Shown here in pieces: positions 1,439 to 64,000 of a stretch of DNA of 64,000 bases; position 1 is the first letter of the stretch, and each line of letters starts with the position of its first letter. The DNA is taken from assembly GCA_965223265.1 (NCBI GenBank), contig OZ244999.1, positions 2,912,001-2,976,000 on the forward strand, given 5' to 3'. The translations under genes were made by a program, and so were the position numbers. The stretch is from Planctomycetota bacterium (GTDB lineage Bacteria; Planctomycetota; UBA8108; SXIK01). The notes under the pieces were generated by a model. The model was not told the origin of the DNA. It was given only the letters and a program-made list of their open reading frames with translations, and did not search any database.

Positions 1439-3888
1439 CCATGAGTCTCACCTCAAATCCGCTGGACGACTGTCGCTTGCGGCGTCTCGTACGAGCAGTC
1501 GCGCTGCTTTCGTTTTTGTGCAGCTGGCCGCCGCTTTTCGGCCAACCCAACACATCGGTAGAGCCCATCGCCTCGTATCTCTTTCCCGCCGGTGGGCAGC
1601 GCGGTACCGAGGTTGACGTGCGCGTCGGGGGGATGTTCCTGCACGACGCCTGTCACGTCGTCGTCAGCGGCGACGGTGTCGACGTTGGAGCAACGTTGAA
1701 TGCCACCGAAACTCTCCTGATCGACAAGGTGACACCGCCGAAAACCTACTTTCCCCAGGAGACGAAGTTTCCGCGTGATTATGCCGCACACGTTAGTGTC
1801 GCTGCGGATGCGGACTTGGGAGCTAAGTACCTACGGTTGTGGACGTCGCAGGGAGCGACGACGCAGCTTGCGTTCATCGTCGGCGACTTTCCGGAAGTGG
1901 TTGAGGAAGAAGTCGCAGGCGATCCTTTGCCGGAGCACGTCACCCTGCCGGTGACGACGAACGGGCGTATCTATCCACGTGAGGATGTCGACATCTGGTC
2001 GTTTGAAGCCAAAAGCGGCGATACGATCACGTGCGAAGTGCGGGCCGCGCGACTCGGTTCATCCTTGGAGTCGTTTTTGGAGGTGCGGGGACCTGACGGT
2101 GGGCGCATCGCGGAGAACAGCGGCTACTACGGTTCCGATGCGATGGTTCGCTTCACGGCGCCGGTTGACGGCGTCTACGCAGTCCACGTCTCGGACATTC
2201 GTTTTGGCGGGCTGCAAAGCTCGGTGTATCGCTTGACCATGACCGCAGACGCTTACGTCGACGTGACATACCCGCTCGGCGGACGAGCTGGAAGACCCGT
2301 GCAGGTCGAGCTTGTTGGGTCGAGTCTCTCGAAGCAGGCGGTCGCGCTCCGCATGCCGCGAATGTCGACGAGCGCATTTCGAGTGGTCGTGCCGTCGAGT
2401 CGCGCGGCAGGCAGTCGAGTCGAACTCGATCTCGGCCGATTTCCCGAGAAGCTCGAAGTGGAGCCCAACGATGCTCCGTCGACGGCTATGGAAGTTTCGC
2501 TGCCGGTGACGGTGAACGGACGTATCGATACGCGTGACGATGTCGATCACTGGGCGGTCGTCGCCAACAAAGACGAGACGATCGAGTTCGGCTTCTTGGC
2601 GCGGAGCTCGGGCTCGCCGCTTGACCCGCTCCTGGTCGTTCTCGACCCTGAAGGCCGTGAGGTGACGCGGTCGGAGGCATCTGGGAGTTTCACGGCGCCG
2701 AAGCCCGGGCGGTATGAGCTACGCGTCGTCGACGTCTTCGGCGGACGTGGTGGACCGAGCTTCGCGTATCGCCTCGAGCTTAAGTCGCCAGGTGAGACTC
2801 AGGCTGATTACCAGCTGGCGCTGACTCGTCCGTCGGTGACCTTGACGCGCGGCAAACCCGCAGAGTTGACAGTGCGCGTGGTGCGCAGCGGCGGCTTTGA
2901 TGCGCCGATCGATGTGAACGTGGGGCCACTTCCTGCTGGTGTCAGCGTGGATCCAGTCACGATTGCACCTGGCAAGCCTGAGGCGAAGATCATCTTTAAG
3001 GCCGCTCCCAAGACGCGCATTCGTGCAACTCGATTGCAGGTGACCGGTGTGGCGACGGCGAACGGGTTCCGAATGCGGCGCACGGCGTCATTTCCAGTCG
3101 ACTATGACGGCGGTGCGCTCGACGACGTGCTTTTGGCTGTTGCGATGCCGACGCCGTTCAAGTTTGCCGGCAAGTACGAGATACCCTTCGCGCTGCGCGG
3201 GACATACCACTATCGTCACTACAAGCTCCATCGCGGCGGCTTTGAGGGGCCGATCTTCGTGCGGCTGTCCGACGTGCAGATTCGTCATCAACAGGGAAGC
3301 ACGGGCCGAACGATCACGATCCCCCCAGGGATCAATGAGTTCGACTACCCGTTCCGTTTGTCCCACTGGATTCAAGTCGGCAAGACAAGTCGCACGGTCG
3401 TGATGGCGTACGCCGACGTCGAGGACTTCGACGGCTCGCTCCATCGAGTCGCCTACACATCTGGAGGCACGGGCGACCAGATCATGGTGCAGCCGTCGGC
3501 CGAGCCGCTTGGGATTGCGGTTCAACCGAGTGCGATCGAGGCGGACAGTACGCAGCCAGTCCAGGTTCGCGTAAGGATCATCCGCGACTCCGACCTGCCA
3601 CTCCCGGCGCTCATCGAGGTCGTCCCGGCGCGTCATGTGCGAGGCATTGCGGCTGCTCCGGTGCTCGTGCCGGCGGATGCAGACGAGGCGGTGCTGTCGA
3701 TTCGATGCGCGCCGACAGCAGGCCCGTTCAACGCGCCGCTGGTGATTCGTGCGACGATCGACCTGCCGCGCGACATGGACGTCCGTGGGCGTCCTTTGCG
3801 GCGCGGCGATCCGGTGGTCGCGCGCACCGAGCTGGAGATTGTCTCGCCGCCAGAGGTGGCGACGAGTGTGTCGCGGGCGTCCGACTGA
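1435..3888 (+). CDS. Secreted PPC (pre-peptidase C-terminal) domain protein of planctomycete DUF1501 clusters
   Basis: FPAGGQRGT N-terminal motif, EVEPND, NGRI...DVD repeats; ATG at 1435 overlaps the DUF1501 stop (ATGA). Confidence 0.8.
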   Translation: MTMSLTSNPLDDCRLRRLVRAVALLSFLCSWPPLFGQPNTSVEPIASYLFPAGGQRGTEVDVRVGGMFLHDACHVVVSGDGVDVGATLNATETLLIDKVTPPKTYFPQETKFPRDYAAHVSVAADADLGAKYLRLWTSQGATTQLAFIVGDFPEVVEEEVAGDPLPEHVTLPVTTNGRIYPREDVDIWSFEAKSGDTITCEVRAARLGSSLESFLEVRGPDGGRIAENSGYYGSDAMVRFTAPVDGVYAVHVSDIRFGGLQSSVYRLTMTADAYVDVTYPLGGRAGRPVQVELVGSSLSKQAVALRMPRMSTSAFRVVVPSSRAAGSRVELDLGRFPEKLEVEPNDAPSTAMEVSLPVTVNGRIDTRDDVDHWAVVANKDETIEFGFLARSSGSPLDPLLVVLDPEGREVTRSEASGSFTAPKPGRYELRVVDVFGGRGGPSFAYRLELKSPGETQADYQLALTRPSVTLTRGKPAELTVRVVRSGGFDAPIDVNVGPLPAGVSVDPVTIAPGKPEAKIIFKAAPKTRIRATRLQVTGVATANGFRMRRTASFPVDYDGGALDDVLLAVAMPTPFKFAGKYEIPFALRGTYHYRHYKLHRGGFEGPIFVRLSDVQIRHQQGSTGRTITIPPGINEFDYPFRLSHWIQVGKTSRTVVMAYADVEDFDGSLHRVAYTSGGTGDQIMVQPSAEPLGIAVQPSAIEADSTQPVQVRVRIIRDSDLPLPALIEVVPARHVRGIAAAPVLVPADADEAVLSIRCAPTAGPFNAPLVIRATIDLPRDMDVRGRPLRRGDPVVARTELEIVSPPEVATSVSRASD

Positions 3889-47111: not shown

Positions 47112-49004
47112 TTAGTTGCCCGCCGGCGCAGCGTCACGTGACACTCGGTAGAGCGTAACGTCCGTGTCGCTGTAGAAGGGACGACCACAACGTGCTACGA
47201 GTTCTTTTTCGATCGCGTGCAGCGTCGCTGCGGGGATTCCTTTTTCCGGGTTGTAAAGTCGCCTCTCTTGGTCGCTCGCCTGCGCACGGCGTTCGTTGAG
47301 GAGTTCGCGTACGCGCTGCCGATGGACCACCACAGTGGCGACGTCGAGCTCGTCGAGAACACGCGGGAGCTCTCGCTCGATGATCTCCGGTCCGACCTTT
47401 GGACGGCCCTCGAAGATGAGCTGCAAAAACGGAAGATCGTGTACGCGTTCGGCGACTTCTGGCAGCACACAGGAGGTGTATCCGCCGACGATCGGGCGAC
47501 CGTGGAGCGTTTGCAGGTAGAGGTCCTCGGCGCCGCGAGCGCGGTACCCTCCCGGCACGTTGAGCACGAGTCCGCGATCGCTTTCGGCAAGGACTTGTGT
47601 CCACGGCGGCCGCGGCAGCGGGCGCATCGACAGAGGGGCGAAGGCGAAATCAACGGCCACTATGCTGGCGATCAAGCACGTAGCTAGGCGTGGGCGGCAT
47701 GCGCAGCACGGTCGGCTCAGGAGGGCGCGCGTGCCGAAGGCAGCTAGCATGGCCAGAGGCAACATCGCTGGGACGATGAACCGATTGGCGACGCGTAGGC
47801 TGCCAGCCAGGGGGACATCTCGAAGCAGGCTGAACGGGAGGGGGATGGCGAACGTCCGTCCCGCGCAGAGCAGTTCCGCCCCAAGTGCCAGCAGTGCATA
47901 GCCGAGAAAGAGGACGCTCCACAGGCGCACGGGAGGGCGGTGTGGCGAGCCTACGCCGTCGGCGTCGAGCGCCGGACGTCGCTTCGAGGCGCAAAGAGCG
48001 AAGAGTGCCAGCGCCAACGGCGTCCAGCCGAGATAACAGGTGAAGCCGACCGAGCCGTAGGACTGGAGCGAGCGGTAAAGCGGCGAGGCCAGACTTCCCC
48101 ACAGCGAGTGGTACGCCGGCGGTATGAAGAGAAACGCCAGGTCGACGCCTTTGTTCACCGGGGGCTTGATGAAATAGCGCGCGCCACTGGCGATCTCTAC
48201 GAGTTTCGGCCAGAGAAACGGCAGCAGAATCGCGGTCGTCAGGAGCGCGGCGACAGCGACGTCGCGCACGAGCCGCAGGCGCGGCCGCGGCGGGCGCACG
48301 ATCGACGCGGCGAAGAGGATGACACCAAGCGGGACGATCATGAGCCCGCTGTGCCAGGAGTAGAGAGCGTTCCAGGCGAAGGTCACCCCGCAAAGAGCCG
48401 CGTTGCCGAGACCACCGAGCCGCAAGAGCCGAAGAAGGCTGTAGGCGAAGAACGGCATTGCCTGATAGCTCGCTAGGTTGATGTGCTCGAAGCTCTGCTC
48501 CACGTGTTGTGGGAAGAAAGCGAAGACAATCCCAGCGACGAACGCACCGCCGCGTGAGGCGCCAAGCTCGAGCGCCAGAACGAACGCGCCCAGCGCGGCG
48601 AGGAAGAAGCCCAGGAGGAGGCACGCGTTGTAGGCAGCCGCGACGCCCAGGATTCGGGTCAACGGCGCGGCCGTGAGCACGTTGAACTCGGAGTGGGTGT
48701 GAAACGCCAGCGAGACCTCGAGCGGGTCGGCAGAGGTTTGGAAAAGAGCTGTTGTGGTGTAGGGACTTCGCCACTGTGCGAGCGCTTCGGCCCAGGCGTG
48801 AAAGTTCCAGAGGTTCTGCCAGAGGTCGTTGTTGCCAGCCGGGACGTGATCGACGAACGTCACCGCCAGCGGCCAGGTCATGGCGACGGTGAGCGCCGCG
48901 TAGATGCTGGCCGCGAGCAGTCCGCCCGGCCATCCATCCTGCCGCCGCTCAGACTCCCGTGGGGCCGTGCCTGAATCCCTGCCCGCGCGGCTTGCGTGAT
49001 CCAT
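47112..49004 (-). CDS. Polytopic membrane protein, GT-C-fold glycosyltransferase-like (YfhO/PMT-like)
   Basis: Many TM segments; TWPL...D..QNLWN first-loop acidic residue; YN...LGF; LR...RF; QTLHGRPIVGGY soluble C-terminal domain. Confidence 0.6.
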   Translation of the reverse strand: MDHASRAGRDSGTAPRESERRQDGWPGGLLAASIYAALTVAMTWPLAVTFVDHVPAGNNDLWQNLWNFHAWAEALAQWRSPYTTTALFQTSADPLEVSLAFHTHSEFNVLTAAPLTRILGVAAAYNACLLLGFFLAALGAFVLALELGASRGGAFVAGIVFAFFPQHVEQSFEHINLASYQAMPFFAYSLLRLLRLGGLGNAALCGVTFAWNALYSWHSGLMIVPLGVILFAASIVRPPRPRLRLVRDVAVAALLTTAILLPFLWPKLVEIASGARYFIKPPVNKGVDLAFLFIPPAYHSLWGSLASPLYRSLQSYGSVGFTCYLGWTPLALALFALCASKRRPALDADGVGSPHRPPVRLWSVLFLGYALLALGAELLCAGRTFAIPLPFSLLRDVPLAGSLRVANRFIVPAMLPLAMLAAFGTRALLSRPCCACRPRLATCLIASIVAVDFAFAPLSMRPLPRPPWTQVLAESDRGLVLNVPGGYRARGAEDLYLQTLHGRPIVGGYTSCVLPEVAERVHDLPFLQLIFEGRPKVGPEIIERELPRVLDELDVATVVVHRQRVRELLNERRAQASDQERRLYNPEKGIPAATLHAIEKELVARCGRPFYSDTDVTLYRVSRDAAPAGN

Positions 49005-51212: not shown

Positions 51213-51543
51213 CGAAAGTGTCTCCTAACAGGAATCTCAGCCGCTGCCCAAATACGAGCAGGAATCTCTGTCTTGTATCGTCGATCGGTTTGCGTTCCCA
51301 CAACCAGAGTCGCGGTCATCCGTTTTTTTCGCCACGTGAGCGTTCGCGCAGGGCGGCGAGCGCATCGTCAACCGTAACGATCGGCACGCGTTGCTGCGTC
51401 GTTGCAGGGTCGGTCGGAGAGCCGTTTTCGGAACACTTGAGCTTGAAGTGGGCTCACAGCACCCCTGCGCAGGGAGCGCGTTGCCGCCGCGGTTTCAGCG
51501 CAGCTGACGGCGTTCGGTGCGCCGATCCGAGTGTCTCTTGACA

Positions 51544-52125
51544 CTATTCCTTGCAGGCGTTGGGGGCGGAATCTGGGAGCCGCGCCAGTTCGTCTTCCAC
51601 CGCGGCGGCAACGTGTTGCCACGCCGGCGGCAGTCTTGGCTTCAGAACGGCGACGACTTCTCGCGTGCGCCGCATCAGCCGTGCCCGGGCGGTCGCGGAA
51701 ATCGAGTCGGAATCGAGGAGATTGTCGAAGCAATCTGCTAGCTTGCAGATTTGGACCTCGGTCGACGCGGCCGCAAGCGCTTCAAGGTACGCCGTCTCGC
51801 GGGCGCTTTCCGGCAGTCGTTTGTCCTTCGTCAGCCGGCTGACGTACTCTCCGACACGCCGGCCGAAGGCCGACTCGATCTCGTCGCGGTCGACGGTGGT
51901 GTCCTCGATGGTGTCGTGGAGGAGCGCTGTGGTCAAAACCTCGGGGTCGGTGACGCCGAACACCCGCATCAAAATCAGCGCCACGCGCGTTGGATGCGCG
52001 GCGTAGGGAGTCATCCCGTCTTTACGAAGCTGCCCCTCGTGGGCTCGCGCCGCGTGCGAAACTGCCCTCAGTGTCCGCGCGAAATCGGGGTCGAGGCGGC
52101 GAGCCTTGTCTTCGTTCATATTCAC
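51544..52125 (-). CDS. Stand-alone RelA/SpoT-type HD hydrolase (small alarmone hydrolase / Mesh1-like)
   Basis: H.GQ.RKDG..PY..HP, LLHDTIEDT, LTKD, KLAD..DN. Confidence 0.8.
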   Translation of the reverse strand: MNMNEDKARRLDPDFARTLRAVSHAARAHEGQLRKDGMTPYAAHPTRVALILMRVFGVTDPEVLTTALLHDTIEDTTVDRDEIESAFGRRVGEYVSRLTKDKRLPESARETAYLEALAAASTEVQICKLADCFDNLLDSDSISATARARLMRRTREVVAVLKPRLPPAWQHVAAAVEDELARLPDSAPNACKE

Positions 52126-52189
52126 GCCGAGACGAGACTGACTGTGCGTGCAGGAAGGTTGCAGAGGCGAAAGTCTGTCAACTCGGCTG

Positions 52190-52411
52190 CTAGCGCCGTC
52201 TGCGACGCTGCAGAGCGCGTTTCAATTCCTTCATCGCCTGACGCTTCGCTTCTTTCGACCGGCGGCGCTGCTTGTCGGAAGGTTTCTCGTAGTAACGTCG
52301 CCGTTTGATCTCTTTGAAGACGCCTTCTTTAGCGCATAAGCGCTTGAAGCGCTGAAAGAAGCGTTCCGGCGGCTCGCCGTAGCGAATCGTCACCTTGATC
52401 ACGCTGTTCAC
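52190..52411 (-). CDS. rpsU: 30S ribosomal protein bS21
   Basis: RFKR...KEG...E..RRRYYEKPS. Confidence 0.93.
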   Translation of the reverse strand: MNSVIKVTIRYGEPPERFFQRFKRLCAKEGVFKEIKRRRYYEKPSDKQRRRSKEAKRQAMKELKRALQRRRRR

Positions 52412-52562
52412 CTCTTCGGGGAGTTGTTGATGGAGGGCTGGGGGGAGTCCTTGAGAGACGCGTCCTGCAAAGCCCGAAACCTACTCTTGTACCTTTTTGG
52501 CGACCATTTGACAACCCGCAGGGTTCAGGGCCGGCAGCGCCAACCGCGCTCGGCGCTGTTTG

Positions 52563-53039
52563 TTACGACCGGGAGGTAGGGGGCGCGTCAGCTGCCACGA
52601 CGGTCAAAAGGCCTTTTGCTGCGATTTCCCCTGCCACGGTTGCCTCGACTGCGAACCGCGCCAAGCTGCCAAAGGCGGCGTCTAAAGTGGCGGAAAGGTC
52701 AATCGACTCCCCGGGGCGAATCAGTCGCAGAAACCTCATGCGGTTGACCTCGGCAAGGTAGCCCCGGATCGGGCTTCCTCCCGGTGCCATGAGCGCCACG
52801 CCGGCGACCTGTGCCAGCGCCTCGATCAGAGCTACGCCCGGCACCAGTGGATTTCCAGGCAGGTGCCCGTCGAAAACGCGGTGGCCTGGCGGAAAGGTGA
52901 CACTGCCGACGACCGACTTGCCGACGCTGACCTGATGGATCGTGTCGACGAGGAGCGCCGGTGGGCGCTGCGGGAGATTGCGGAGAAGTTGAGCTGGCTG
53001 CGTGAGTGCCGCAGCGTCTGGGGGGTCTGGCATGCTCAT
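52563..53039 (-). CDS. FabZ/FabA-like hotdog dehydratase
   Basis: LPQRPP.LLVD, FDGHLPGNPLVPGVALIEALAQ, RF...IRPG; 4-nt overlap with hcrB-like gene. Confidence 0.8.
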   Translation of the reverse strand: MSMPDPPDAAALTQPAQLLRNLPQRPPALLVDTIHQVSVGKSVVGSVTFPPGHRVFDGHLPGNPLVPGVALIEALAQVAGVALMAPGGSPIRGYLAEVNRMRFLRLIRPGESIDLSATLDAAFGSLARFAVEATVAGEIAAKGLLTVVAADAPPTSRS

Positions 53040-54034
53040 GGCGTCGTCCCCAGCGAGCGTAATCCGTCGCGTGCCATGAGTCCAACACGCAGGCGCCGAT
53101 GGGCTGGGCTCAGAGGGCCCCCGGTGTTGAGAGGTGTGGTGTGGCTACGCACAAGCTCCGCCGCCGCTGCGAGGCGTTCTTCGTCGTCGAGGCGCGCGTT
53201 TTCGAGCTCGGCGGCGGCGGCGCGCACAAGAAATGGTCTCGGGGCGACTGCGGTGAGCGCGACGCGCACATCACGCATCGTGACACCTCGCTCCAGGCGC
53301 GCAGCGATTGCGACCCCCGCCAGAGGAAAATCGATGGCGCCGCGACGGCGAAGTTTCTCGTAACGTCCGCTGAGCGATCGACGGCGCGGTGGGATCAGAA
53401 GGTCCGTCAGGATTTCGTCGGCCCCGAGGTCGAACTTCGCGATGCCATCGTCGACGAAGAAGGCGTCCAGCGGCACGACTCTTGCCTCATCTCGTCGCCG
53501 TAGCTGAACGCTCGCATCCAGAGTGAGAAGTGCGGGCGCCAAGTCGCCCGAGGCGACAGCCCAGCACAGATCGCTTGCCGGCGCGACGTGGCAGCGATCG
53601 CCATCTTTCTTCAGGCAGAAGCCGCACGCCTGACGCCAACCATACGGCTGGTTGTACCAATGACACCGCGTCTCCAAGCAGACATTACCACCGATGGTGC
53701 CCATACGTCGTAGCGTTGGCGCTGAGATCGTCTGGGCAGCCTGGGCCAGCACCGCCAGCTCGCGGCGTACGAACTCGTCGGCAGCCAGCTGCGCAATGGT
53801 CGTTAGCGCGCCGATTCTCACTGTTCCATCCCTGAGCACGGAGACACCTCGCAGCTCTGTGAGGCGAGCCAGCGAGATCAGAGCGCGTGGTGTCTCGAGT
53901 CGTTGTCTGAGGTTGACGACGAGGTCGGTGCCGCCGGCGATGAGGCGCCCCGAGGCGCCGAGGTCGGCACGCTGCGCCAGCGCCTCGTGGAGCGACTTGG
54001 GACGCAGCAGCTGAAACGATGGTAGAGTCGCCAT
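53036..54034 (-). CDS. hcrB: 4-hydroxybenzoyl-CoA reductase beta-like subunit (FAD + [4Fe-4S])
   Basis: AGGTDL, TIGGN, and insert C-x15-C-x7-C-x8-C (RCHWYNQ...CLKKDGDRCHV...C) characteristic of HcrB/HbaD. Confidence 0.75.
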   Translation of the reverse strand: MATLPSFQLLRPKSLHEALAQRADLGASGRLIAGGTDLVVNLRQRLETPRALISLARLTELRGVSVLRDGTVRIGALTTIAQLAADEFVRRELAVLAQAAQTISAPTLRRMGTIGGNVCLETRCHWYNQPYGWRQACGFCLKKDGDRCHVAPASDLCWAVASGDLAPALLTLDASVQLRRRDEARVVPLDAFFVDDGIAKFDLGADEILTDLLIPPRRRSLSGRYEKLRRRGAIDFPLAGVAIAARLERGVTMRDVRVALTAVAPRPFLVRAAAAELENARLDDEERLAAAAELVRSHTTPLNTGGPLSPAHRRLRVGLMARDGLRSLGTTP

Positions 54035-54037
54035 GGC

Positions 54038-56443
54038 CTATCCGCTCACATCCGACACTGGTGCTCCGCGGCGCTGCGGACTGGCTGCGGGGCGGCCGCA
54101 ACCCGACGTAGCGGGATTGCGCAGAGCTCGAAGGATTCGCTCAGGTGAGAGCGGCAGTTCGGTCACCCACACGCCGATGGCGTCATGGATCGCATTTGTG
54201 AGCGCTGGGAGGATCGCCGCGAGCGAGCCCTCTCCTGCCTCCTTGGCGCCGAACGGACCCTCGGGGTCCGAGCTCTCGACAAGATGAATCTCGATATCCG
54301 GTGAGTCGACGCTCGTTGGCATCTTGTACTCGAGCAGACCTGGATTGAACGACAAGCCCTGGGGTGAGAAGTGCTGCTCTTCCCAGAGCGCTTGACCGAT
54401 TCCCATCCAGATCGAACCGCGCACTTGGCCCTCGACGGCGAGAGGGTTGATCGCCTTGCCGCAATCATGCGCTGCCCACACCTTGACGATGGAGACTTCG
54501 CCGCTTTCGACATCGACTTCGACCTCAACGACCTGGGCCGCGTAGCTGTAGGCGACGCCGGGACCGACGCCAGCACCACGAAACGTGCCGCCCTTCGCCG
54601 CGCGTGGGGGAGAGTAGGAACCGGTCGTGACCAGCGGCCCATCCGCCGAAACTGCGAGCCTGACTGCGTCGCGAAACGACAGCGACCGCGCCCCGTCTTG
54701 CCAGCCGACGATGCGGCCGCGTTCGAGCCGTAGCTCATTCGTAGGCACGCCAAGCGCCTTTGCCGCGGCGAGTACCAGGCGCTCTCGCATGCGATTGGCC
54801 GCCTCCAGCGCGGCGTTGCCGGCCATGAAGGTGACGCGGGACGCGTAAGTGCCGAGGTCCACCGGCGTCAAGAGGGTGTCGCCTGAGATGACCCGGATAT
54901 CGTCGCAGCGCAGCGCGAGGGCCTCGGCCGTGATCATCGCCAGCAGCGTGTCACTGCCCTGACCGAGCTCGGTTGTGCCGACGAAGAGGGTCAACTTGCC
55001 GTCGCGATCGGTCTCGAGTTTCACCGTCGAGTGGGGCTGCGATCCACGAACGATTGCGTTGGACGCGCCGCTGACGTAGTGGCTGGCGCCGAAACCGATG
55101 CCGCGGCCGTATGGCAAGCGCCCGCGACGATCTTTCCACTTCGATGCGCGCTCAACGACTTCGATACACTCGGGGAGACCATAGCTAGTGACGCGGAGAT
55201 CATTGATGGTTCGCGATCCGGCGGTGAGGAAGTTGCGGCGCCGTAGTTCCAGTGGGTCCATACCCAGTGCGACCGCGCCGCGATCCAAGAGTGACTCGAA
55301 GGCGTGGCGTGCGGCAATCGTTCCGTGCCCTCGCATCGGACCGCAGGCAGGCTTGTTCGTGAGCACGCGGTAGCCATCGAAGCGTAGGTTGTCGACCGCG
55401 TAGAGAGCGCAGAGCAGAGCGCCCGAGTAGAGAATCGTCACCACGCCGTAGCTGCAGTAAGCGCCGCCGTCTTGAAACGTCTCACACTCGACGGCGCGAA
55501 CGCGTCCTTCTTTGCTGAAGCCGACCCGCATGTGAATTCTGCTTTCAGGTCGACCGCGGTGTAGGAGAAACACCTCGTGCCGGTCGAGTATGAATCGGAC
55601 TGGCCGACCCGTCCGACGAGCCAGCAGCGCGGCGGCAACATCTGCGGGAAACGTTTCCGACTTGCCGCCGAAGCCGCCGCCGACGGCGCATGGAATGACC
55701 CGAATGGACGGCTCGGCGATCTCGAGCGCTCGGGCGACACCCCGTTGAACGTGCCGAGCCGTCTGCGTCGAGGTCCATAGGGTATAGCGGTTGCCGTCTT
55801 CGTAGCGTGCGACCGTGCCGTGCGGTTCGAGTGCTGCGTGAGTAACCCGCGGGTGAAAGAACGTGTCCTCAACGATGACGTCAGCCGCATCAAACTCAGC
55901 AGCTGGATCGCCGAAGACGTGATGGTACGACTTTTCCACGTTGCGCGGCCGGTTTGCGTGAATCGGCTCGGCATCGACTTTCAGGGCGGTGTCAAGATCG
56001 AGATAGGGCGGAAGAATCTCGTAGGCGACCTGCAGTTGTTCGACTGCTCTCTCCGCTGCCTCAGCACTTGTCGCTGCGACCGCCGCAACCTCCTGCCCGG
56101 CATAGCGGACCTTGTCGGTGGCGAGAGCGGTTTCGTCGTGTCCCACTGGAAGGACTCCGTAGCGCCGTGGAGTGTCGCGGCCGGTGATAATGGCTTTGAC
56201 ACCGGGGACGCGGAGAGCTGCGCTTGTGTCAATCGAGACGACCCTGGCGTGGGCATGCGGGCTGCGAAGGAACTTCCCCTGCAGCATGCCAGGCAAGCGA
56301 ACGTCTTCGACGAAGGTGACGCCACCGCTGGCTCGTGCCGCCCCGTCGAGCAGGGGCGCGTCCGCACCGATGTTTCGCGTTCGGCGCCCGACGTCGTCTT
56401 GGTTCCGTTCTCCTTCCTTCTCCTCTTCGCGCCTCATGCTCAC
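54038..56443 (-). CDS. hcrA: 4-hydroxybenzoyl-CoA reductase alpha-like molybdopterin subunit (xanthine oxidase family)
   Basis: GGGFGGK, YGVVTILYSGALL, CGPMRGHG, ELGQGS, GTYASRVT, GPFGAKEAGEG. Confidence 0.72.
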   Translation of the reverse strand: MSMRREEEKEGERNQDDVGRRTRNIGADAPLLDGAARASGGVTFVEDVRLPGMLQGKFLRSPHAHARVVSIDTSAALRVPGVKAIITGRDTPRRYGVLPVGHDETALATDKVRYAGQEVAAVAATSAEAAERAVEQLQVAYEILPPYLDLDTALKVDAEPIHANRPRNVEKSYHHVFGDPAAEFDAADVIVEDTFFHPRVTHAALEPHGTVARYEDGNRYTLWTSTQTARHVQRGVARALEIAEPSIRVIPCAVGGGFGGKSETFPADVAAALLARRTGRPVRFILDRHEVFLLHRGRPESRIHMRVGFSKEGRVRAVECETFQDGGAYCSYGVVTILYSGALLCALYAVDNLRFDGYRVLTNKPACGPMRGHGTIAARHAFESLLDRGAVALGMDPLELRRRNFLTAGSRTINDLRVTSYGLPECIEVVERASKWKDRRGRLPYGRGIGFGASHYVSGASNAIVRGSQPHSTVKLETDRDGKLTLFVGTTELGQGSDTLLAMITAEALALRCDDIRVISGDTLLTPVDLGTYASRVTFMAGNAALEAANRMRERLVLAAAKALGVPTNELRLERGRIVGWQDGARSLSFRDAVRLAVSADGPLVTTGSYSPPRAAKGGTFRGAGVGPGVAYSYAAQVVEVEVDVESGEVSIVKVWAAHDCGKAINPLAVEGQVRGSIWMGIGQALWEEQHFSPQGLSFNPGLLEYKMPTSVDSPDIEIHLVESSDPEGPFGAKEAGEGSLAAILPALTNAIHDAIGVWVTELPLSPERILRALRNPATSGCGRPAASPQRRGAPVSDVSG

Positions 56444-56485
56444 TTCTCATGCTTCGCGGCCTGTAGTGGCCGGCGGTCTCGGGTC

Positions 56486-57016
56486 TCAGCTGAGTGATCG
56501 GTCCGGCGGGTTGACCGTCGCCGGCGGTGAAATCCTTTCAGAACGTTGAAGCCTCTGGGCCGCTTCGCGTACGGCTTCGACGATTGGAGTGTAGCCGGTG
56601 CAGCGACAGAGATTGCCCGCGAGCGCCTGGCGAGCCGCCGCCTCCGTGAGTGTGTCGCCGCGCTCGACGAGCGCCGCCGCAGTCATGATGATGCCGGGCG
56701 TACAGTAGCCGCACTGAAGCCCGCCGGACTCGACCAACGCGCTCTGCAGCGCGCTGAGTCGCTCGTCGTTGTTGAAGTTCTCGACAGTGGTGACGGCTGC
56801 CCCTTCTGCCAAGAGCGCCAGAAACACACAAGCCAACACGGGTTCGCCGTCGACGAGGACGGTACACGCGGCACAGCTGGCATCATCACAGCCTCGCTTG
56901 GTCCCAGTCAGATCAAGCTCGTCCCGCAGCACCTCGAGGAGCGTCTGCTGATGCTGAACCGCTACCTGCTGCGCGTCGCCGTTGACTTGGAAAGAAAGCA
57001 GCTCCTTTCCGTTCAT
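56486..57016 (-). CDS. hcrC: [2Fe-2S] gamma subunit of the xanthine-oxidase-family enzyme
   Basis: GTKRGC...CAACTV, QCGYCTPG, NLCRCTGY. Confidence 0.75.
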   Translation of the reverse strand: MNGKELLSFQVNGDAQQVAVQHQQTLLEVLRDELDLTGTKRGCDDASCAACTVLVDGEPVLACVFLALLAEGAAVTTVENFNNDERLSALQSALVESGGLQCGYCTPGIIMTAAALVERGDTLTEAAARQALAGNLCRCTGYTPIVEAVREAAQRLQRSERISPPATVNPPDRSLS

Positions 57017-57184
57017 GGCCGGGCATGTTAACAGAAACCAGTTACGGTTAGAATTGTCGATTCACAGGAAATCGGCGCCGCGAACGAGCAGAGTGACGCA
57101 GCGAGATCGGCTGCGAGAGACGTCTTGACGCGGCGATAGGCGACTGGTCGCATCGTGGTCGGAGCCACGTGGGAGGGAGATGAG

Positions 57185-59224
57185 ATGGCTATGTCCGTGA
57201 CTTCGGTGGTCGTGTTGAGCGTATTCACGACGGCGGCAGCGCCAGACCTTTCGACTCTTGTTTTCACGGACACTGCGGTCGAGAGGGTCGCAACAGGTTT
57301 CTCGTTTGTCGAAGGGCCGGCGTGGAGCCCGGACGGATATTTGCTCTTCAGTGACATCCCCGCCAGCCGCGTCCTGCGTTTCGTGGGTCGTAACGAGGTG
57401 GCGAGTGTGCTCTCACCTTCCGGCAAGGCGAACGGTTTGGTGTTCGATTCCGGTGGCAACCTCTATTTGTGCCAAGGCGGCGCGCGCCGCGTCTCTAAGC
57501 TCTCTAGCGACGGCAAGCTGGAGCCGCTCGCGACGGCGTTCAACGGACGTCGATTCAATAGTCCGAATGATCTGGCGCTCGACGGTGCCGGCGGCATCTA
57601 CTTCACCGATCCCCGGTACGGAAGTAAGGACGGCATGGAGCAAGAAGTCATGGCTGTCTACTACATTGACCGCCGTGGCAAAGTCACACGGGTGATCGAC
57701 GACTTGATCCGACCCAACGGCATTTTGGTCAGCCTCGACGGGCAGCAGCTCTACGTCGCCGAGCCTGACCTGCGGCAGCTGCGAAGCTACCCCATCGAAA
57801 GGGCTGGGGTTGTGGGCGACGCCATGGTGCTCTTCACTGGGGATGCAGAGATCGACGGGTACGGTCCCGACGGTATGGCTCTCGACGTGCTCGGCAACGT
57901 CTACACTACGTATCGCGGCGTCGTCGTTCTCACGGCAACCGGGGAACTGGTCGGTCGGATCGATATTCCCGAGAACCCAGCGAATTGCACCTTCGGCGGC
58001 GAGGAGTTGAAGACATTGTTCGTCACCGCGCAGAAAAGCCTCTATCAGGTGAGGATGCGCGTCGCCGGGGCCCAGGCTGTTTCTTTCGAGATGGCGAAGG
58101 AGTCGCAGCGACCGGCGCCGCGATTTGAATCGGTCGTCATAGACGCTGGGGTCGGCATAGGTTACGGCGTTGCTGCCGAGGACGTGAACGGCGACGCTCT
58201 CACTGACGTGGTTCTGGTCGATCGCGACGTGGTGGCGTGGTATCGCAACCCTACGTGGGAACGGCAAGTCGTGGCGCAGCGACTCTCCGCGAAAGATCAC
58301 GTCTGTATCGCGGTGCGCGATACAGACGGCGACGGACGGGCCGAGGTGGCGGTGGGTGGCGAGTGGAATCCGCGCGACACGGTGACCAGCGGCAGCCTTC
58401 ACTACCTTCACCGCGGCGCTGACGCATCGGCGCCTTGGTCGACCGTCGATCTGCCGGCGGAGCCGACGGTCCATCGCATGCGCTGGATTCGTCGCGAGGA
58501 CGGCCACATGGATCTCTTGGTTGTGCCGCTCCACGGACGGCGAAATGTCGGCGGCGAGGGCCTCGGTGTGCGGACGTTCCTGTATGAACGTCCCGCGGAC
58601 CCGCGCACTCCGTGGGGCCGCACCCTCGTCTCCTGGCAGCTGCACATGACGCATAACCTCGACCCGGTCCAATGGGACGAGGACTCTGCCGAGGAGTTTG
58701 TCGTTGCGGCTCGCGAGGGTCTTTTTCTCTTCGATCGAACCGATGGTGGCTGGAGGCGGCAGCAACTGGCGGGCGGCGCGGAGTTTTCGGGAGCTAGCGA
58801 GGTGAGGGTTGGACGTCTTGCGAGCGGCCGGCGATTTCTTGCCAGCATCGAGCCGTTTCACGGCAATCAACTCGTCGTCTATACCCCGCCGGCCGTGGCT
58901 GGCGGCTTGTGGGTGCGCCAGGTGATCGACGACGGGCTGAACGGTGGCCACGCCGTCGCTTGTGGAGATTTCATCGGCGCCGGCGGCGACCAGATCGTGG
59001 CTGGGTGGCGACTTCCTAACGCGGACGGCGAAGTGGGGATTCGTCACTATACACCGCTGGATGCCGACGGCCGTCGCTGGCACGCCGCAGCGATCGATCG
59101 CAACACCATGGCTTGTGAAGATCTGAGGCTCGCAGACTTCGACGCCGATGGTCGGCTCGATCTCGTTGCCGCAGGTCGCGCGACGAAGAATCTAACCATC
59201 TATTTCAACCGGTCAGGCCGCTGA
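57185..59224 (+). CDS. Fusion of SMP-30/gluconolactonase and FG-GAP-type (aldos-2-ulose dehydratase-like) beta-propeller, secreted
   Basis: N-half EGPAW, NSPND, PNG, PDG, NCTFGG; C-half DVNGD, WYRNPTW, HRMRW, EPFHGNQ, DFDADG. Confidence 0.75.
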   Translation: MAMSVTSVVVLSVFTTAAAPDLSTLVFTDTAVERVATGFSFVEGPAWSPDGYLLFSDIPASRVLRFVGRNEVASVLSPSGKANGLVFDSGGNLYLCQGGARRVSKLSSDGKLEPLATAFNGRRFNSPNDLALDGAGGIYFTDPRYGSKDGMEQEVMAVYYIDRRGKVTRVIDDLIRPNGILVSLDGQQLYVAEPDLRQLRSYPIERAGVVGDAMVLFTGDAEIDGYGPDGMALDVLGNVYTTYRGVVVLTATGELVGRIDIPENPANCTFGGEELKTLFVTAQKSLYQVRMRVAGAQAVSFEMAKESQRPAPRFESVVIDAGVGIGYGVAAEDVNGDALTDVVLVDRDVVAWYRNPTWERQVVAQRLSAKDHVCIAVRDTDGDGRAEVAVGGEWNPRDTVTSGSLHYLHRGADASAPWSTVDLPAEPTVHRMRWIRREDGHMDLLVVPLHGRRNVGGEGLGVRTFLYERPADPRTPWGRTLVSWQLHMTHNLDPVQWDEDSAEEFVVAAREGLFLFDRTDGGWRRQQLAGGAEFSGASEVRVGRLASGRRFLASIEPFHGNQLVVYTPPAVAGGLWVRQVIDDGLNGGHAVACGDFIGAGGDQIVAGWRLPNADGEVGIRHYTPLDADGRRWHAAAIDRNTMACEDLRLADFDADGRLDLVAAGRATKNLTIYFNRSGR

Positions 59225-59520: not shown

Positions 59521-60723
59521 ATGCGAAGACGATTTGGCAATCACACCTTAACGGATTCGGCTTCTCACGCATCAGCACTGACGTTCTTCTTCGTGGCGCT
59601 TCTGCTCCCGGCCGCACCCGTCGTCAGCGCCGACGATGCCGCTGCGGCGACAGCGGCTCCAACGACGGAGGCGGATCGCGAGATTGGCAAGAAGGCCGCA
59701 GTCAAAAGCGAGTACATTCGCTTCATTCCCGGTCGACGTGGCGAGGGTGTCCTGAGCACTTCGATCGTGACCCTCGAACGGCCAAACGGGGTGCGGGTCG
59801 ACTTGGTGGCTGCGATCCACATCGCGGATCGTTCCTACTTTTCGCAGCTGCAGAAACGCTTCGAGTCCTACGATAGCGTCCTCTATGAGATGGTGAAGGA
59901 TCCAGACGTCGATCCGGGGCGTCGCCCTGCTGGCGGTGACAGTCTCCTCAGTCTCCTGCAACGCGGAATGAAGGAAACTCTCGAGCTCGAGTTTCAACTC
60001 GATGCGATCGACTACTCCGCCGCCAATTTTGTCCACGCTGATCTGGATCCCAAGACCTTCTTTCGGCTGCAGCGAGAACGCGGCGAGAATGTGCTGACGC
60101 TTTTGCTTCAGGGAATGAGGGCGGAACTTGACGCCCGTAAAAGCGGCGCGATCGAAACCGTCGGACCGGGGCAGCTTCTAGCGGCTCTTGCGAGCGAGGA
60201 TAGCGCCCGCGCCTTGAAGTTCGTATTCGCGAAACAGATGCAACACGCCGAGCTGATCCTCGCCGAGTTCGAGCCAGACACATCGCCGCAGGCGGCCGAC
60301 GCCGACGACCCGCCGGGGCCGGCTCGAGGCGCTGGCTCCGTACTTCTCACCGAGCGCAACAAAGCGGCGCTCCGCGTTCTCGAGAAGGAGCTGGAGAGTG
60401 GCAAGCGGCGGATTGCCATCTTCTACGGCGGTGGTCACATGCCGGATCTGCACGCACGACTCGTTCGGGAGTTCGGTTTTCGGCGCGTAGGGATTGAGTG
60501 GGTTGATGCGTGGAATATTCGAAAGAAGCCAAAAGCCTCACGATCCAAAGGGCTTTTCGGACGACTGTTGGGTGGCCGGGCGCGCCGCGACGACGATGCC
60601 GAGAGCGCCGATGTCGGCGAGGAGACGAAAGCGACCGACCCGGAGCAGGAGAACGAGGAGCCGACGGGGACGAAGCCGGAGGCGCGAGAGCTCCCGCCGA
60701 GCGCTGGGGCCTCTGCGAACTGA
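59521..60723 (+). CDS. Secreted hypothetical protein, TraB/GumN-like metal-binding motifs
   Basis: VDLVAAIHIAD..Y, VLYE, ERN, IFYGGGHMPD; acidic disordered tail. Confidence 0.55.
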   Translation: MRRRFGNHTLTDSASHASALTFFFVALLLPAAPVVSADDAAAATAAPTTEADREIGKKAAVKSEYIRFIPGRRGEGVLSTSIVTLERPNGVRVDLVAAIHIADRSYFSQLQKRFESYDSVLYEMVKDPDVDPGRRPAGGDSLLSLLQRGMKETLELEFQLDAIDYSAANFVHADLDPKTFFRLQRERGENVLTLLLQGMRAELDARKSGAIETVGPGQLLAALASEDSARALKFVFAKQMQHAELILAEFEPDTSPQAADADDPPGPARGAGSVLLTERNKAALRVLEKELESGKRRIAIFYGGGHMPDLHARLVREFGFRRVGIEWVDAWNIRKKPKASRSKGLFGRLLGGRARRDDDAESADVGEETKATDPEQENEEPTGTKPEARELPPSAGASAN

Positions 60724-60793
60724 GTGCGCTATTTCAGAAGTATTGATCGATGTGTTGGGGGCGATGCGAGTTGAAGAGATGAGGAAGGGCGAC

Positions 60794-61705
60794 ATGAGGA
60801 ACGACGTGACCCGCGCGAGCCAAGCCGGTGGTTGGACATTTATCATACTAGCGCTAGTGACTCTCGGTGGTGGCTGTAGTTCGGAGGCGCCACCGGCCGG
60901 AGTGTCGCCGGACGTCCAGCTCTCTGAGGTGATCGCGCACGTCCAAGGTGGCCGGCTCGCGGCTGCTTACGAGGCGTGGCTGCCCGCGTCTTACCGCTCC
61001 GATCTCGATCGAACGGTACAAGCGGTGGCCTCGCTCATCGACGCTGATGATTTCGCCCAGGTGACGGGGAGTCTGCGGTCGTCAGGGCGCCAACTCGCCG
61101 CCATGCTCAGTCTCAGTACGGAAGATGATGCTCTCGTTGCGCTCGCGAAGGCGAAGCTGGCCGATCTGCCTGCGACGCTTGGGCTGACCGAGTTCATCCG
61201 ACTTAAGGACCTCACGGCTCGCGACGCCATCGCAGCGCTTGATACGACTTTTTTTGGCGAGTTGATGCAGCTCGACGTTGTGCGCGAAAAGTTCGGACGA
61301 ATCGATGTACAGTTGAAGAAGCGGGAGCGCGATTGGGCTCAAGTTCTTGTCGTTTCGCACCGCGGGGAATCGCCGCAGGAGGAAGTGGTCGAACTGATTC
61401 GAGTCGACGGCAAGTGGCTTCCCAGTGGGTGGAGTCTCGATTGGGACAGGCAGGTGGAGGGCTGGCATGAAGCGATCGGCAAGGCGAAGGAGCTCAAGGA
61501 GACACAGCCCGAAGTTTATCGGACACATCTTGGCGAGGTCTGCAAGCGCCTTGCGAGTCCGTTCGAGTTGATGCAGGATTTCTTGCCCCGGATTGGCGAT
61601 GCCCTTGGCGTTGCGCCGTCCGAGGCTCCTGTGGCGGAAGCCTCGGGCGGCGAGGCCGTCAGGAAGCTGCCCGTTTGGCGGCCGAATCGAGTCGCAACGG
61701 AATAG
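60794..61705 (+). CDS. Hypothetical lipoprotein
   Basis: Hydrophobic stretch then GGGC lipobox; LPASY..D and VDGKWLP motifs. Confidence 0.55.
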   Translation: MRNDVTRASQAGGWTFIILALVTLGGGCSSEAPPAGVSPDVQLSEVIAHVQGGRLAAAYEAWLPASYRSDLDRTVQAVASLIDADDFAQVTGSLRSSGRQLAAMLSLSTEDDALVALAKAKLADLPATLGLTEFIRLKDLTARDAIAALDTTFFGELMQLDVVREKFGRIDVQLKKRERDWAQVLVVSHRGESPQEEVVELIRVDGKWLPSGWSLDWDRQVEGWHEAIGKAKELKETQPEVYRTHLGEVCKRLASPFELMQDFLPRIGDALGVAPSEAPVAEASGGEAVRKLPVWRPNRVATE

Positions 61706-63410: not shown

Positions 63411-64000
63411 ATGGCCGAGTGCCGCGAAGAACGAAACATTACGACCATCGTCGAAGGTGTCATTTCGAGCGTTCGAGATCAGGGCGACGACGCTCTGTGC
63501 GAGTTCGCGTCGCGTTGGGACGGTGTGAGGTTGACGCCGAAGATGCTTCGCGTACCGTCTGCCGCGATCGGGTCAGCATCCGTCGACACTGAATTCGCCG
63601 CGGCATTTCGCCACGCGGTTGACCGTATTCGCAAGTTTCATGAGCAGGTCAAGCCACGGAGCGTTTTCGTTGAGGATGCCGCCGACGGAGTGCGCCTTGG
63701 GCTGCGCTGGACGCCGGTCCGATCCGTCGGCCTTTATGTTCCCGGTGGCAAGGCGAGCTATCCGTCGACATTGGCGATGACTGCGGTGCCGGCACAAATC
63801 GCGGGCGTGCAGCGCATTGCCGTGGTGTCGCCGCCGGGGCCGAATGGCGAGGTCTCGGATCAGGTGCTCACAGCGGCACGGATTCTTGGTCTCAAGGAGA
63901 TCTACCGCGTCGGTGGTGCACAGGCAGTGGCGGCGCTGGCGATCGGTACTGAGGCGATACCACGAGTCGACAAGATTTTTGGGCCTGGAAATGCTTTCGT
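63411..64000 (+). CDS. hisD: Histidinol dehydrogenase, 5' part (runs off window)
   Basis: VRDQGDDAL, VGLYVPGGKASYPST, VPAQIAGV, GGAQAVAALA.GT, DKIFGPGN. Confidence 0.95.
   Translation, partial: MAECREERNITTIVEGVISSVRDQGDDALCEFASRWDGVRLTPKMLRVPSAAIGSASVDTEFAAAFRHAVDRIRKFHEQVKPRSVFVEDAADGVRLGLRWTPVRSVGLYVPGGKASYPSTLAMTAVPAQIAGVQRIAVVSPPGPNGEVSDQVLTAARILGLKEIYRVGGAQAVAALAIGTEAIPRVDKIFGPGNAF

Follow-up and report, generated by a model that had tools for sequence, protein, structure and literature searches.

The window described here is a 64,000-nucleotide stretch of a Planctomycetota genome (contig OZ244999.1, positions 2,912,001 to 2,976,000), which contains a compact reverse-strand operon whose first three genes resemble hcrCAB, the genes of 4-hydroxybenzoyl-coenzyme A (CoA) reductase (Hcr), and whose last gene resembles fabZ. 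In the direction of transcription, the operon consists of an hcrC-like gene for a gamma subunit carrying a pair of [2Fe-2S] clusters (56486-57016; 176 amino acids; Pfam Fer2_2 at 97.5 bits together with Fer2), an hcrA-like gene for the molybdenum cofactor-binding alpha subunit (54038-56443; 801 amino acids from a GTG start; Pfam Ald_Xan_dh_C, MoCoBD_1, and MoCoBD_2), an hcrB-like gene for the flavin adenine dinucleotide (FAD)-binding beta subunit (53036-54034; 332 amino acids; Pfam FAD_binding_5 and CO_deh_flav_C), and a gene for a FabZ-like hotdog dehydratase paralogue (52563-53039; 158 amino acids; Pfam FabA, PF07977, at 48.8 bits). The first-pass annotation had likened the gamma-alpha-beta order to that of hcrCAB, and it indeed matches the Thauera aromatica locus (L108). 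It had also reported that the hcrB stop overlaps the start of the dehydratase gene, which we can verify from the sequence: the two share an ATGA at 53036-53039 (reverse strand), where the junction reads CCATGAGCATG and the hotdog ATG at 53039-53037 overlaps the hcrB TGA at 53038-53036. A second hotdog ATG lies two codons downstream of the first. The true start of the alpha subunit is uncertain because its homology with HcrA begins only at approximately residue 24. GC content is even over the operon region (0.59-0.66). A hairpin-forming inverted repeat (I18; 52535-52558, strand not assigned), evident from both the inverted-repeat listing and the sequence, sits just 3' of the hotdog stop and is a possible end of the operon. 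We can only infer a terminator role for this hairpin because the consensus terminator scan missed it; over 51400-57400, that scan returned four terminator-like sites compared to 4.4 expected, none of them at the operon end, and a promoter scan of the same region returned zero promoter-like sites. A look for RNA data covering 52300-57200 turned up none, although four runs of a single study contain this DNA as contigs.

The alpha subunit can be considered Hcr-like because its scores against both solved structures and curated protein families far exceed those of the next candidates. It matches Thauera HcrA (1rm6_A) at 696 bits, with the second-best structure at 298, and it matches the NCBIfam model TIGR03194 at 925.4 bits, with the best other family at 536. 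The earlier description of the operon as hcrCAB-like is therefore upheld by these scores, as well as by the retention of the beta-subunit Cys loop and the alpha-subunit Glu described below. However, none of the three subunits reaches its equivalog cut-off: the alpha subunit falls short of the 994.55 bits required by TIGR03194, the beta subunit scores 296.2 bits against TIGR03195 (cut-off 404.55), and the gamma subunit scores 158.1 bits against TIGR03193 (HcrC; cut-off 257.8), its best match being XdhC_XDHase at 170.8 bits. Residues 4-305 of the beta subunit align with 1rm6_B (189.5 bits), and C124, C140, C148, and C157 (53564-53665, reverse strand, codons checked) fall on Cys residues of that chain with exactly the C-x15-C-x7-C-x8-C spacing noted in the first-pass annotation, which corresponds to the [4Fe-4S] insertion of Hcr-type enzymes. 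Residue 738 of the alpha subunit (codon 54230-54232, reverse strand) is the conserved Glu, which we take to be the catalytic base of the family. Altogether, these comparisons show that the operon encodes a complete predicted Hcr-type three-subunit enzyme having all of the cofactor-binding features in addition to the catalytic Glu. Relative to HcrCAB of T. aromatica (PDB 1RM6/1SB3), the gene order, subunits, domains, beta Cys loop, and catalytic Glu are all the same. The differences are that the window alpha subunit is only ~45% identical (tblastn), that its active-site-adjacent motif is GGGFGGK, as in generic members of the family, rather than the GGGFGAR of true HcrA, that there is neither a CoA ligase nor a benzoyl-CoA pathway, and that a FabZ-like gene has been added to the operon.

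For the phylogeny of the alpha subunit, we fetched 80 Thauera-type HcrA loci at 69-100% identity from the proteobacterial clade (hereafter the true clade), and 80 loci of a very widespread clade (hereafter the wide clade) that spans many phyla, takes in further members of this class, and is 44-49% identical to the window protein (at least 672 of its 678 pattern matches were confirmed). A search of a large protein collection yielded approximately 19 proteins at 63-68% identity and >100 at 53-59%, many of the latter carrying the name '4-hydroxybenzoyl-CoA reductase subunit alpha' in their source records. A single 67%-identical database protein is labeled Planctomycetota by its source. The first tree set comprised 159 high-scoring segment pairs of ≥650 amino acids, with 13 dropped for an internal stop, and trees were built with FastTree (106 and 85 rows) and with IQ-TREE in short searches that used a PMSF mixture model (55 and 50 rows). 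The trees agree in splitting an Hcr superclade from the genome's other xanthine-oxidase-family paralogues (support 99), and all of them recover the characterized proteobacterial HcrA clade on a long stem (support 100). The wide clade, to which Hcr-like genes from other families in this class belong, has a support of 99. The window protein and its closest relatives form a separate clade (support 100; stem length 0.32-0.37; hereafter the window clade), which groups with a mostly Acidobacteriota sister group (support 97-98; 53-59% identity). The window clade and its sister group are joined to the true clade with a support of only 68 in the 50-row IQ-TREE, and this node is unresolved in the 55-row IQ-TREE and the 85-row FastTree.

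Residue-level and profile comparisons separate these groups as well. At the position of E738, a Glu is found in 19/19 window-clade, 29/29 sister-group, and 8/8 true-clade rows, whereas 17/19 wide-clade rows have a Gln; a branch with a support of 99 lies between the wide clade and the window clade. The sister group also shares the Glu-containing GAKEAGEGS motif with the window clade. Scores against TIGR03194 range from 1225-1389 for the true clade (5/5 above the cut-off) and 1004-1071 for the sister group (10/10 above) to 900-937 for the window clade (8/8 below) and 790-915 for the wide clade (14/14 below). Thus, the sister group, which is named 4-hydroxybenzoyl-CoA reductase alpha by NCBI/JGI, passes the HcrA cut-off, unlike the window clade. 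At the 79 alignment columns that separate the true and wide clades, the window protein matches the former at 11, the latter at 37, and neither at 31. In comparison, the beta-subunit Cys loop is shared by all: its four Cys residues are retained at 76/76 true-clade, at least 66/69 wide-clade, and 3/3 window-clade loci. Since the loop is common to the whole superclade and a similar insert also aligns in 5y6q_B, it does not discriminate; the loop is a marker of the Hcr superclade rather than of function. Among the genomes searched, the window clade is confined to a single order, where it is present in 4/21 genomes, and it was found in 2/401 genomes of a phylum-wide sample. On the basis of these homology data, the window alpha subunit is placed as a rare, divergent lineage in the Glu-retaining branch of the Hcr superclade. 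The first-pass annotation had proposed alpha-subunit phylogeny as a check of its interpretation; its expectation of membership holds for the superclade, but not for the characterized HcrA clade.

The gene neighborhoods of the other clades offer a useful reference for the window operon. At 24/77 true HcrA loci, an AMP-ligase gene lies within 7 kb; the true loci also have genes for enoyl-CoA hydratase-family (ECH) proteins, acyl-CoA dehydrogenases, and ferredoxins. At wide-clade loci, the neighbors are housekeeping genes apart from a MobA-like gene, which is located downstream at 15/72 loci. Among the 80 sister-group loci (L199-L278), we found genes for ECH (67), TetR (60), Amidohydro_2 (57), PaaA/PaaC-like (53), rhodanese (40), and aldehyde dehydrogenase (24) proteins, with some loci adding CoA-transferases. 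The ECH genes usually occur in two copies, always co-directional, 1-8 kb upstream of hcrC. A conserved Acidobacteriota cluster is evident, consisting of TetR, two ECH, PaaA/PaaC-like, rhodanese, hcrCAB, and Amidohydro_2 genes, whose gene content resembles that of a box-type ring-opening set combined with an Hcr-type reductase. We also considered the ECH genes as the sister group's analogue of the hotdog gene. This was rejected, as the ECH genes, found together with the PaaA/PaaC-like genes, are more in keeping with a box-like ring-opening set than with a hydratase partner. None of the 80 sister-group loci has a gene for a hotdog protein, a methyltransferase, or a ketosynthase, and none of the sister-group companion genes accompanies the window operon.

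As stated in the first-pass annotation, the window hotdog protein retains the catalytic residues of FabZ, the 3-hydroxyacyl-acyl carrier protein (ACP) dehydratase with which it shares its fold family. H59 (codon 52863-52865, reverse strand) and E73 (codon 52821-52823, reverse strand) line up with the GH and IEA motifs in FabZ chains of known structure (best E 9e-17), and both are invariant in 13/13 family members within the motif HxPGxPxxPGV...IEAxAQ. However, the protein scores only 88.5 bits against the FabZ model NF000582 (cut-off 113) and 84.7 bits against TIGR01750 (cut-off 155.15). Because it is below both cut-offs, we consider it a paralogue rather than the housekeeping FabZ. Of the genome's three FabA/FabZ-like genes, it has the lowest score (49 bits), and the strongest is a 103-bit copy within a 466-amino acid open frame at 3.99 Mb. 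The hotdog family is small, as 12 of 367 candidates in a word-indexed search reached E≤1e-10. An ApeI-like (aryl polyene) identity was tried and rejected (E=0.032; 14.9 bits versus a cut-off of 28.5), and faint matches to cispentacin proteins, namely the hotdog protein versus AmcE (33.5 bits; cut-off 140) and the ketosynthase described below versus AmcF (108.5 bits; cut-off 325), serve as leads only.

Hotdog orthologues with 48-55% identity are encoded in 6/40 related genomes (G014, G016, G002, G003, G009, and G005), while the remaining matches in these 40 genomes are ≤36% identical and resemble the housekeeping copy; over all of the orthologues found, identity ranges from 48-64%. At four of the six loci (G016, G014, G002, and G003), a gene for a Methyltransf_12-type S-adenosylmethionine (SAM) methyltransferase of ~370-500 amino acids lies directly upstream on the same strand, and in G014 it overlaps the hotdog gene by 4 nt. 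Further upstream are genes for a protein lacking any Pfam match (protein X) and a divergent FabF-like ketosynthase. A metagenome scan added 26 hotdog loci with orthologues of 49-61% identity, some of which may overlap the genomes already counted. Seven of these have <200 nt of upstream sequence and are uninformative regarding the upstream gene, whereas in 17 of the 19 loci having ≥500 nt, the methyltransferase gene is directly upstream, and the ketosynthase and protein X genes are present wherever the contig extends far enough. The usual place of the hotdog gene is therefore the 3' end of a ketosynthase-X-methyltransferase-dehydratase cassette. The window genome has retained an orthologous ketosynthase-X-methyltransferase set 2 Mb away (C1:4953888-4957753), its products being 45%, 50%, and 41% identical to those of the relatives: a FabF-like ketosynthase (136 bits versus a cut-off of 494), a 318-amino acid protein X having no Pfam or NCBIfam match, and a 415-amino acid SAM methyltransferase. 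Genes for a GT4 glycosyltransferase and a FabG-like reductase are found beside this set, but no hotdog-like gene lies behind it. Since the rest of the cassette remains here without a hotdog gene, the dehydratase has evidently become detached from it. In relation to FabZ, the window dehydratase is thus distinguished both by its model scores and by its tie to this cassette.

A few peculiarities of individual hotdog loci should be noted. In G016 (L013 3151-3564), hotdog homology (frame 3157-3564) starts directly after an in-frame stop at 3151-3153, and the first listed start (ATG 3226) would remove ~23 conserved residues, which suggests that the start is unusual, that there is a sequencing error, or that the gene is decaying. 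In G009 (L025 5549-6628) and G005 (L026 5115-6179), which belong to another family, the hotdog gene follows a gene for a ~355-amino acid protein without a Pfam match instead of a methyltransferase gene; homologues of this protein are encoded in the window genome at 8.73 Mb and 3.82 Mb. In G014, a gene for a C_GCAxxG_C_C 'putative redox-active protein' is located between hcrB and the hotdog gene (L015 3998-4438). A weak relative of it occurs near the hotdog gene in G005 (L026 4375-4893), and the homologue in the window genome is at ~8.06 Mb.

We next compare the positions of the hotdog gene and hcrB in all of the genomes and contigs examined. In G016 and G014, the whole cassette converges upon the 3' end of hcrB. 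The same convergent arrangement is present in 5/26 metagenome loci (4/17 with ≥500 nt downstream of the hotdog gene plus one with 217 nt), in which ~40-220 nt separate the stops and the hcrA fragments share 65-66% identity with the window gene. Thus, wherever the hotdog gene lies beside hcrB in another genome or contig, the two are convergent (7/7), whereas the co-directional hcrB-hotdog overlap is found in the window genome only. In G002, the cassette and the hcr genes are on different contigs, and G003, G005, and G009 (80-91% complete) have the hotdog gene but no close hcr orthologue. At none of the relatives' loci examined does rpsU lie next to the hotdog gene. In terms of the survey of hcr and fabZ co-localization proposed in the first-pass annotation, adjacency recurs in two relatives and five metagenome contigs, while co-directional coupling does not. 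That annotation had also named two observations that would count against its view, an alpha subunit outside of the HcrA clade or a fabZ-like gene that follows rpsU in relatives. The former is what the trees indicate, while the gene that the dehydratase follows in relatives is the methyltransferase gene rather than rpsU.

Given that the hotdog gene normally closes the cassette and is here both separated from it and co-directional behind hcrB, we consider the coupling of the dehydratase to the hcr genes to be probably a lineage-specific rearrangement of two neighboring transcription units. As a local rearrangement, the pairing is not yet evidence of a new pathway. In the simplest history, the ancestral state would have been a cassette convergent with hcrBAC; in the lineage of the window genome, a flip or re-insertion would then have placed the dehydratase gene behind hcrB, with the other cassette genes coming to lie 2 Mb away. 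We looked for inverted repeats flanking the hotdog gene as the scar of an inversion and found nothing convincing. The dehydratase is probably now expressed and translated from the hcr promoter and transcript, and most likely it still serves the acyl-thioester chemistry of the cassette.

The first-pass annotation had suggested that the operon could represent unreported anaerobic aromatic metabolism in a planctomycete, and it recommended a genome-wide search for bcr, bam, and box genes. The genome is a single 9.18-Mb contig with a marker-gene completeness of 91.65%. Family searches of the entire genome returned zero matches for HGD-D (BcrB/C type; class I benzoyl-CoA reductase), AFOR_N (BamB type; class II benzoyl-CoA reductase), and BoxB, while tblastn of the genome found no PaaA/PaaC-like protein. 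There is also no aryl-CoA ligase above the cut-off genome-wide, as the best benzoate-CoA-ligase-like gene scores 272 bits versus a cut-off of 375. This gene, which is the AMP-ligase gene nearest to the operon (11 kb from hcrC, outside of the window), was considered as a candidate aryl-CoA ligase, but it encodes a long-chain fatty-acid CoA ligase (479 bits versus a cut-off of 476) and was rejected; the his genes that separate it from hcrC are a further reason for dropping the idea. The genome's single XdhC-type chaperone gene is at 3.47 Mb, ~0.5 Mb from the window, and MobA-like genes occur elsewhere in the genome. A third xanthine-oxidase-family paralogue adjoins the XdhC-type gene (C1:3466878-3471419). 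The first-pass annotation saw no gene nearby for a CoA ligase, a benzoyl-CoA reductase, or a molybdenum cofactor chaperone, and this is borne out, as these searches place none inside the window. Because class I and class II benzoyl-CoA reductases, BoxB, and aryl-CoA ligases are all missing from the genome, anaerobic aromatic catabolism via hcrCAB appears unlikely in this organism, and the proposal of such a metabolism finds no support. Likewise, the Hcr-like enzyme would not be part of a classical aromatic degradation pathway, since the genome offers no route that consumes benzoyl-CoA.

Several observations weigh against a mere rearrangement. The cassette abuts hcrCAB in two of the three other genomes having the window hcr lineage as well as in the five metagenome loci, and in the window genome the dehydratase gene stayed with hcr while the remaining cassette moved. 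Adjacency together with a retained dehydratase fits a functional link as well as it fits inherited synteny, and an exact ATGA overlap is the outcome that would be expected from selection for co-expression. It should also be noted that the related genomes are kin, so their counts are not independent, that tree support consists of SH-aLRT or FastTree values only, that the tree rows do not name R. palustris HbaC or further enzymes with genetic proof, and that the base of the Hcr superclade is unresolved in the trees. One alternative is that the Hcr-like enzyme and the cassette constitute a functional unit in a single biosynthetic route, in which the enzyme would dehydroxylate a 4-hydroxyaryl thioester to provide an aryl starter, or would tailor a phenolic acyl product, with the relocation of the dehydratase gene having tightened an existing link. 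We regard this as rather unlikely, even though it accommodates the convergent neighbors in G016, G014, and the five metagenome loci, the occurrence of a hotdog orthologue in all 4/4 genomes with the window hcr lineage, the ATGA overlap, the lack of a catabolic sink for benzoyl-CoA, and the FabG-like reductase and glycosyltransferase genes beside the cassette. It is less easily reconciled with the different contigs of the two units in G002, with the presence of the hotdog gene (and in G003 the cassette too) in three genomes without the window hcr lineage, with the lack of hcrB at 12/17 metagenome loci having ≥500 nt downstream of the hotdog gene, or with a cassette in which we see no ACP or aryl-activating gene. 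In addition, the adjacency may simply be synteny inherited within one order. A sign of old synteny in this region does exist: a gene for an SMP-30/gluconolactonase and FG-GAP protein that is divergent from hcrC in the window (57155-59224, forward strand) has an orthologue (56% identical) in G003 located 2 kb from the methyltransferase-hotdog pair, in a genome without a close hcr orthologue.

The remaining alternatives concern the enzyme itself rather than its link to the cassette. It could be a genuine 4-hydroxybenzoyl-CoA reductase serving the anaerobic degradation of phenolic acids, as all of the structural hallmarks of Hcr are present and the sister group, which passes the NCBI HcrA cut-off, sits among ECH, CoA-transferase, PaaA/PaaC-like, and aldehyde dehydrogenase genes. 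Yet the genome lacks every BcrB/C-type, BamB-type, BoxB, and PaaA/PaaC-like gene or above-cut-off aryl-CoA ligase, all three subunits score below their equivalog cut-offs, and the operon is surrounded by housekeeping genes, as opposed to the AMP-ligase genes near 24/77 true HcrA loci, all of which renders a degradative role highly improbable. Somewhat less remote, although still doubtful, is a change of substrate, whereby the enzyme would hydroxylate or dehydrogenate a compound other than a thioester, as do most xanthine-oxidase-family members, and the dehydratase would be an unrelated passenger. The long stem of the window clade, the 31/79 diagnostic columns that fit neither consensus, the loss of the sister group's aromatic-CoA gene context, and the generic GGGFGGK motif are all in agreement with such a change, but the [4Fe-4S] loop is fully retained and the relatives closest to the window clade all belong to the Hcr type. 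In Hcr, this loop has been tied to an inverted, reductive electron flow (Structure 2004 paper, as cited in 10.1101/2025.01.17.632430).

By analogy with Hcr, low-potential electrons would enter the window enzyme at the beta-subunit cluster and would proceed via FAD and the [2Fe-2S] clusters to the molybdenum, where a hydroxyl group would be removed from, or in the reverse direction inserted into, an aryl-type thioester. The most we would venture from this analogy is that the substrate may be a hydroxyaryl thioester or a derivative of such a thioester; that it is specifically a 4-hydroxybenzoyl-thioester-like compound is a reasonable guess to which we would assign slightly less than even odds. 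A report on the urolithin C dehydroxylase Ucdh of Enterocloster bolteae (10.1101/2025.01.17.632430) provides background on the Hcr molybdopterin cytosine dinucleotide (MCD) cofactor, on the part played by a para electron-withdrawing group, and on the reductive chemistry. According to that report, Ucdh is a xanthine-oxidase-family enzyme with ~33% identity to Hcr that catalyzes reductive phenol dehydroxylation para to an electron-withdrawing group, and Hcr and Ucdh are the only two reductive dehydroxylases known in the family. Hcr-like chemistry is therefore not limited to CoA thioesters, although we liken Ucdh to the window enzyme by its description only. The other proposal of the first-pass annotation, a repurposed reductase acting upon a CoA or ACP thioester in a lipid-type route, is a possible explanation, and the frequent abutment of the hotdog gene's cassette with hcrCAB is a new hint in its favor. 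A more specific version, in which a noncatabolic Hcr-type enzyme would be the tailoring or starter-supplying reductase for the cassette, leading to an aryl-primed or phenol-derived lipid or polyketide, we offer only tentatively and consider rather improbable.

The operon lies among housekeeping genes. On the same strand, 3' of the operon, are rpsU (52190-52411), which begins ~150 nt beyond the hairpin, an HD-domain gene, and a gene for an isocitrate/isopropylmalate dehydrogenase, while his genes are found further to the right. Among the latter is a histidinol dehydrogenase open reading frame (ORF; 63411-64000) that runs on for 770 amino acids, beyond the window to ~65723. As this is far longer than the 411 positions of the Pfam Histidinol_dh profile, the protein may be fused to another domain. 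Three further ORFs at 47112-49004 (reverse strand), 59521-60723 (forward strand), and 60494-61705 (forward strand), of 630, 400, and 403 amino acids, respectively, had no Pfam match at E≤0.001. Since the latter two overlap each other, it is likely that no more than one is genuine.

Two aspects of this locus are new, namely a separate window clade within the Hcr superclade and the recognition that the 'coupled FabZ' has been displaced from a ketosynthase-X-methyltransferase-dehydratase cassette, which is often found adjoining hcr. In the portions of the literature covered by our search, we found no paper describing the window hcr lineage, its hcr-fabZ link, or the displaced-dehydratase cassette. 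Hcr look-alikes are named '4-hydroxybenzoyl-CoA reductase' in thousands of genomes and metagenomes, and they are then tallied as markers of anaerobic aromatic degradation. The window case represents a third lineage, in which both the Glu and the iron-sulfur loop are kept, the genome offers no means of using benzoyl-CoA, and the genes are repeatedly located beside a fatty-acid-like biosynthetic cassette. Even if the link with the cassette is not real, this would still serve as a warning against inferring function from a name or from a 4-nt gene overlap. If the link is true, it would broaden the use of the Hcr enzyme type and constitute the first biosynthetic use of 4-hydroxybenzoyl-CoA reductase chemistry, and the dehydratase gene within the hcr operon would be a snapshot of two units in the process of merging.

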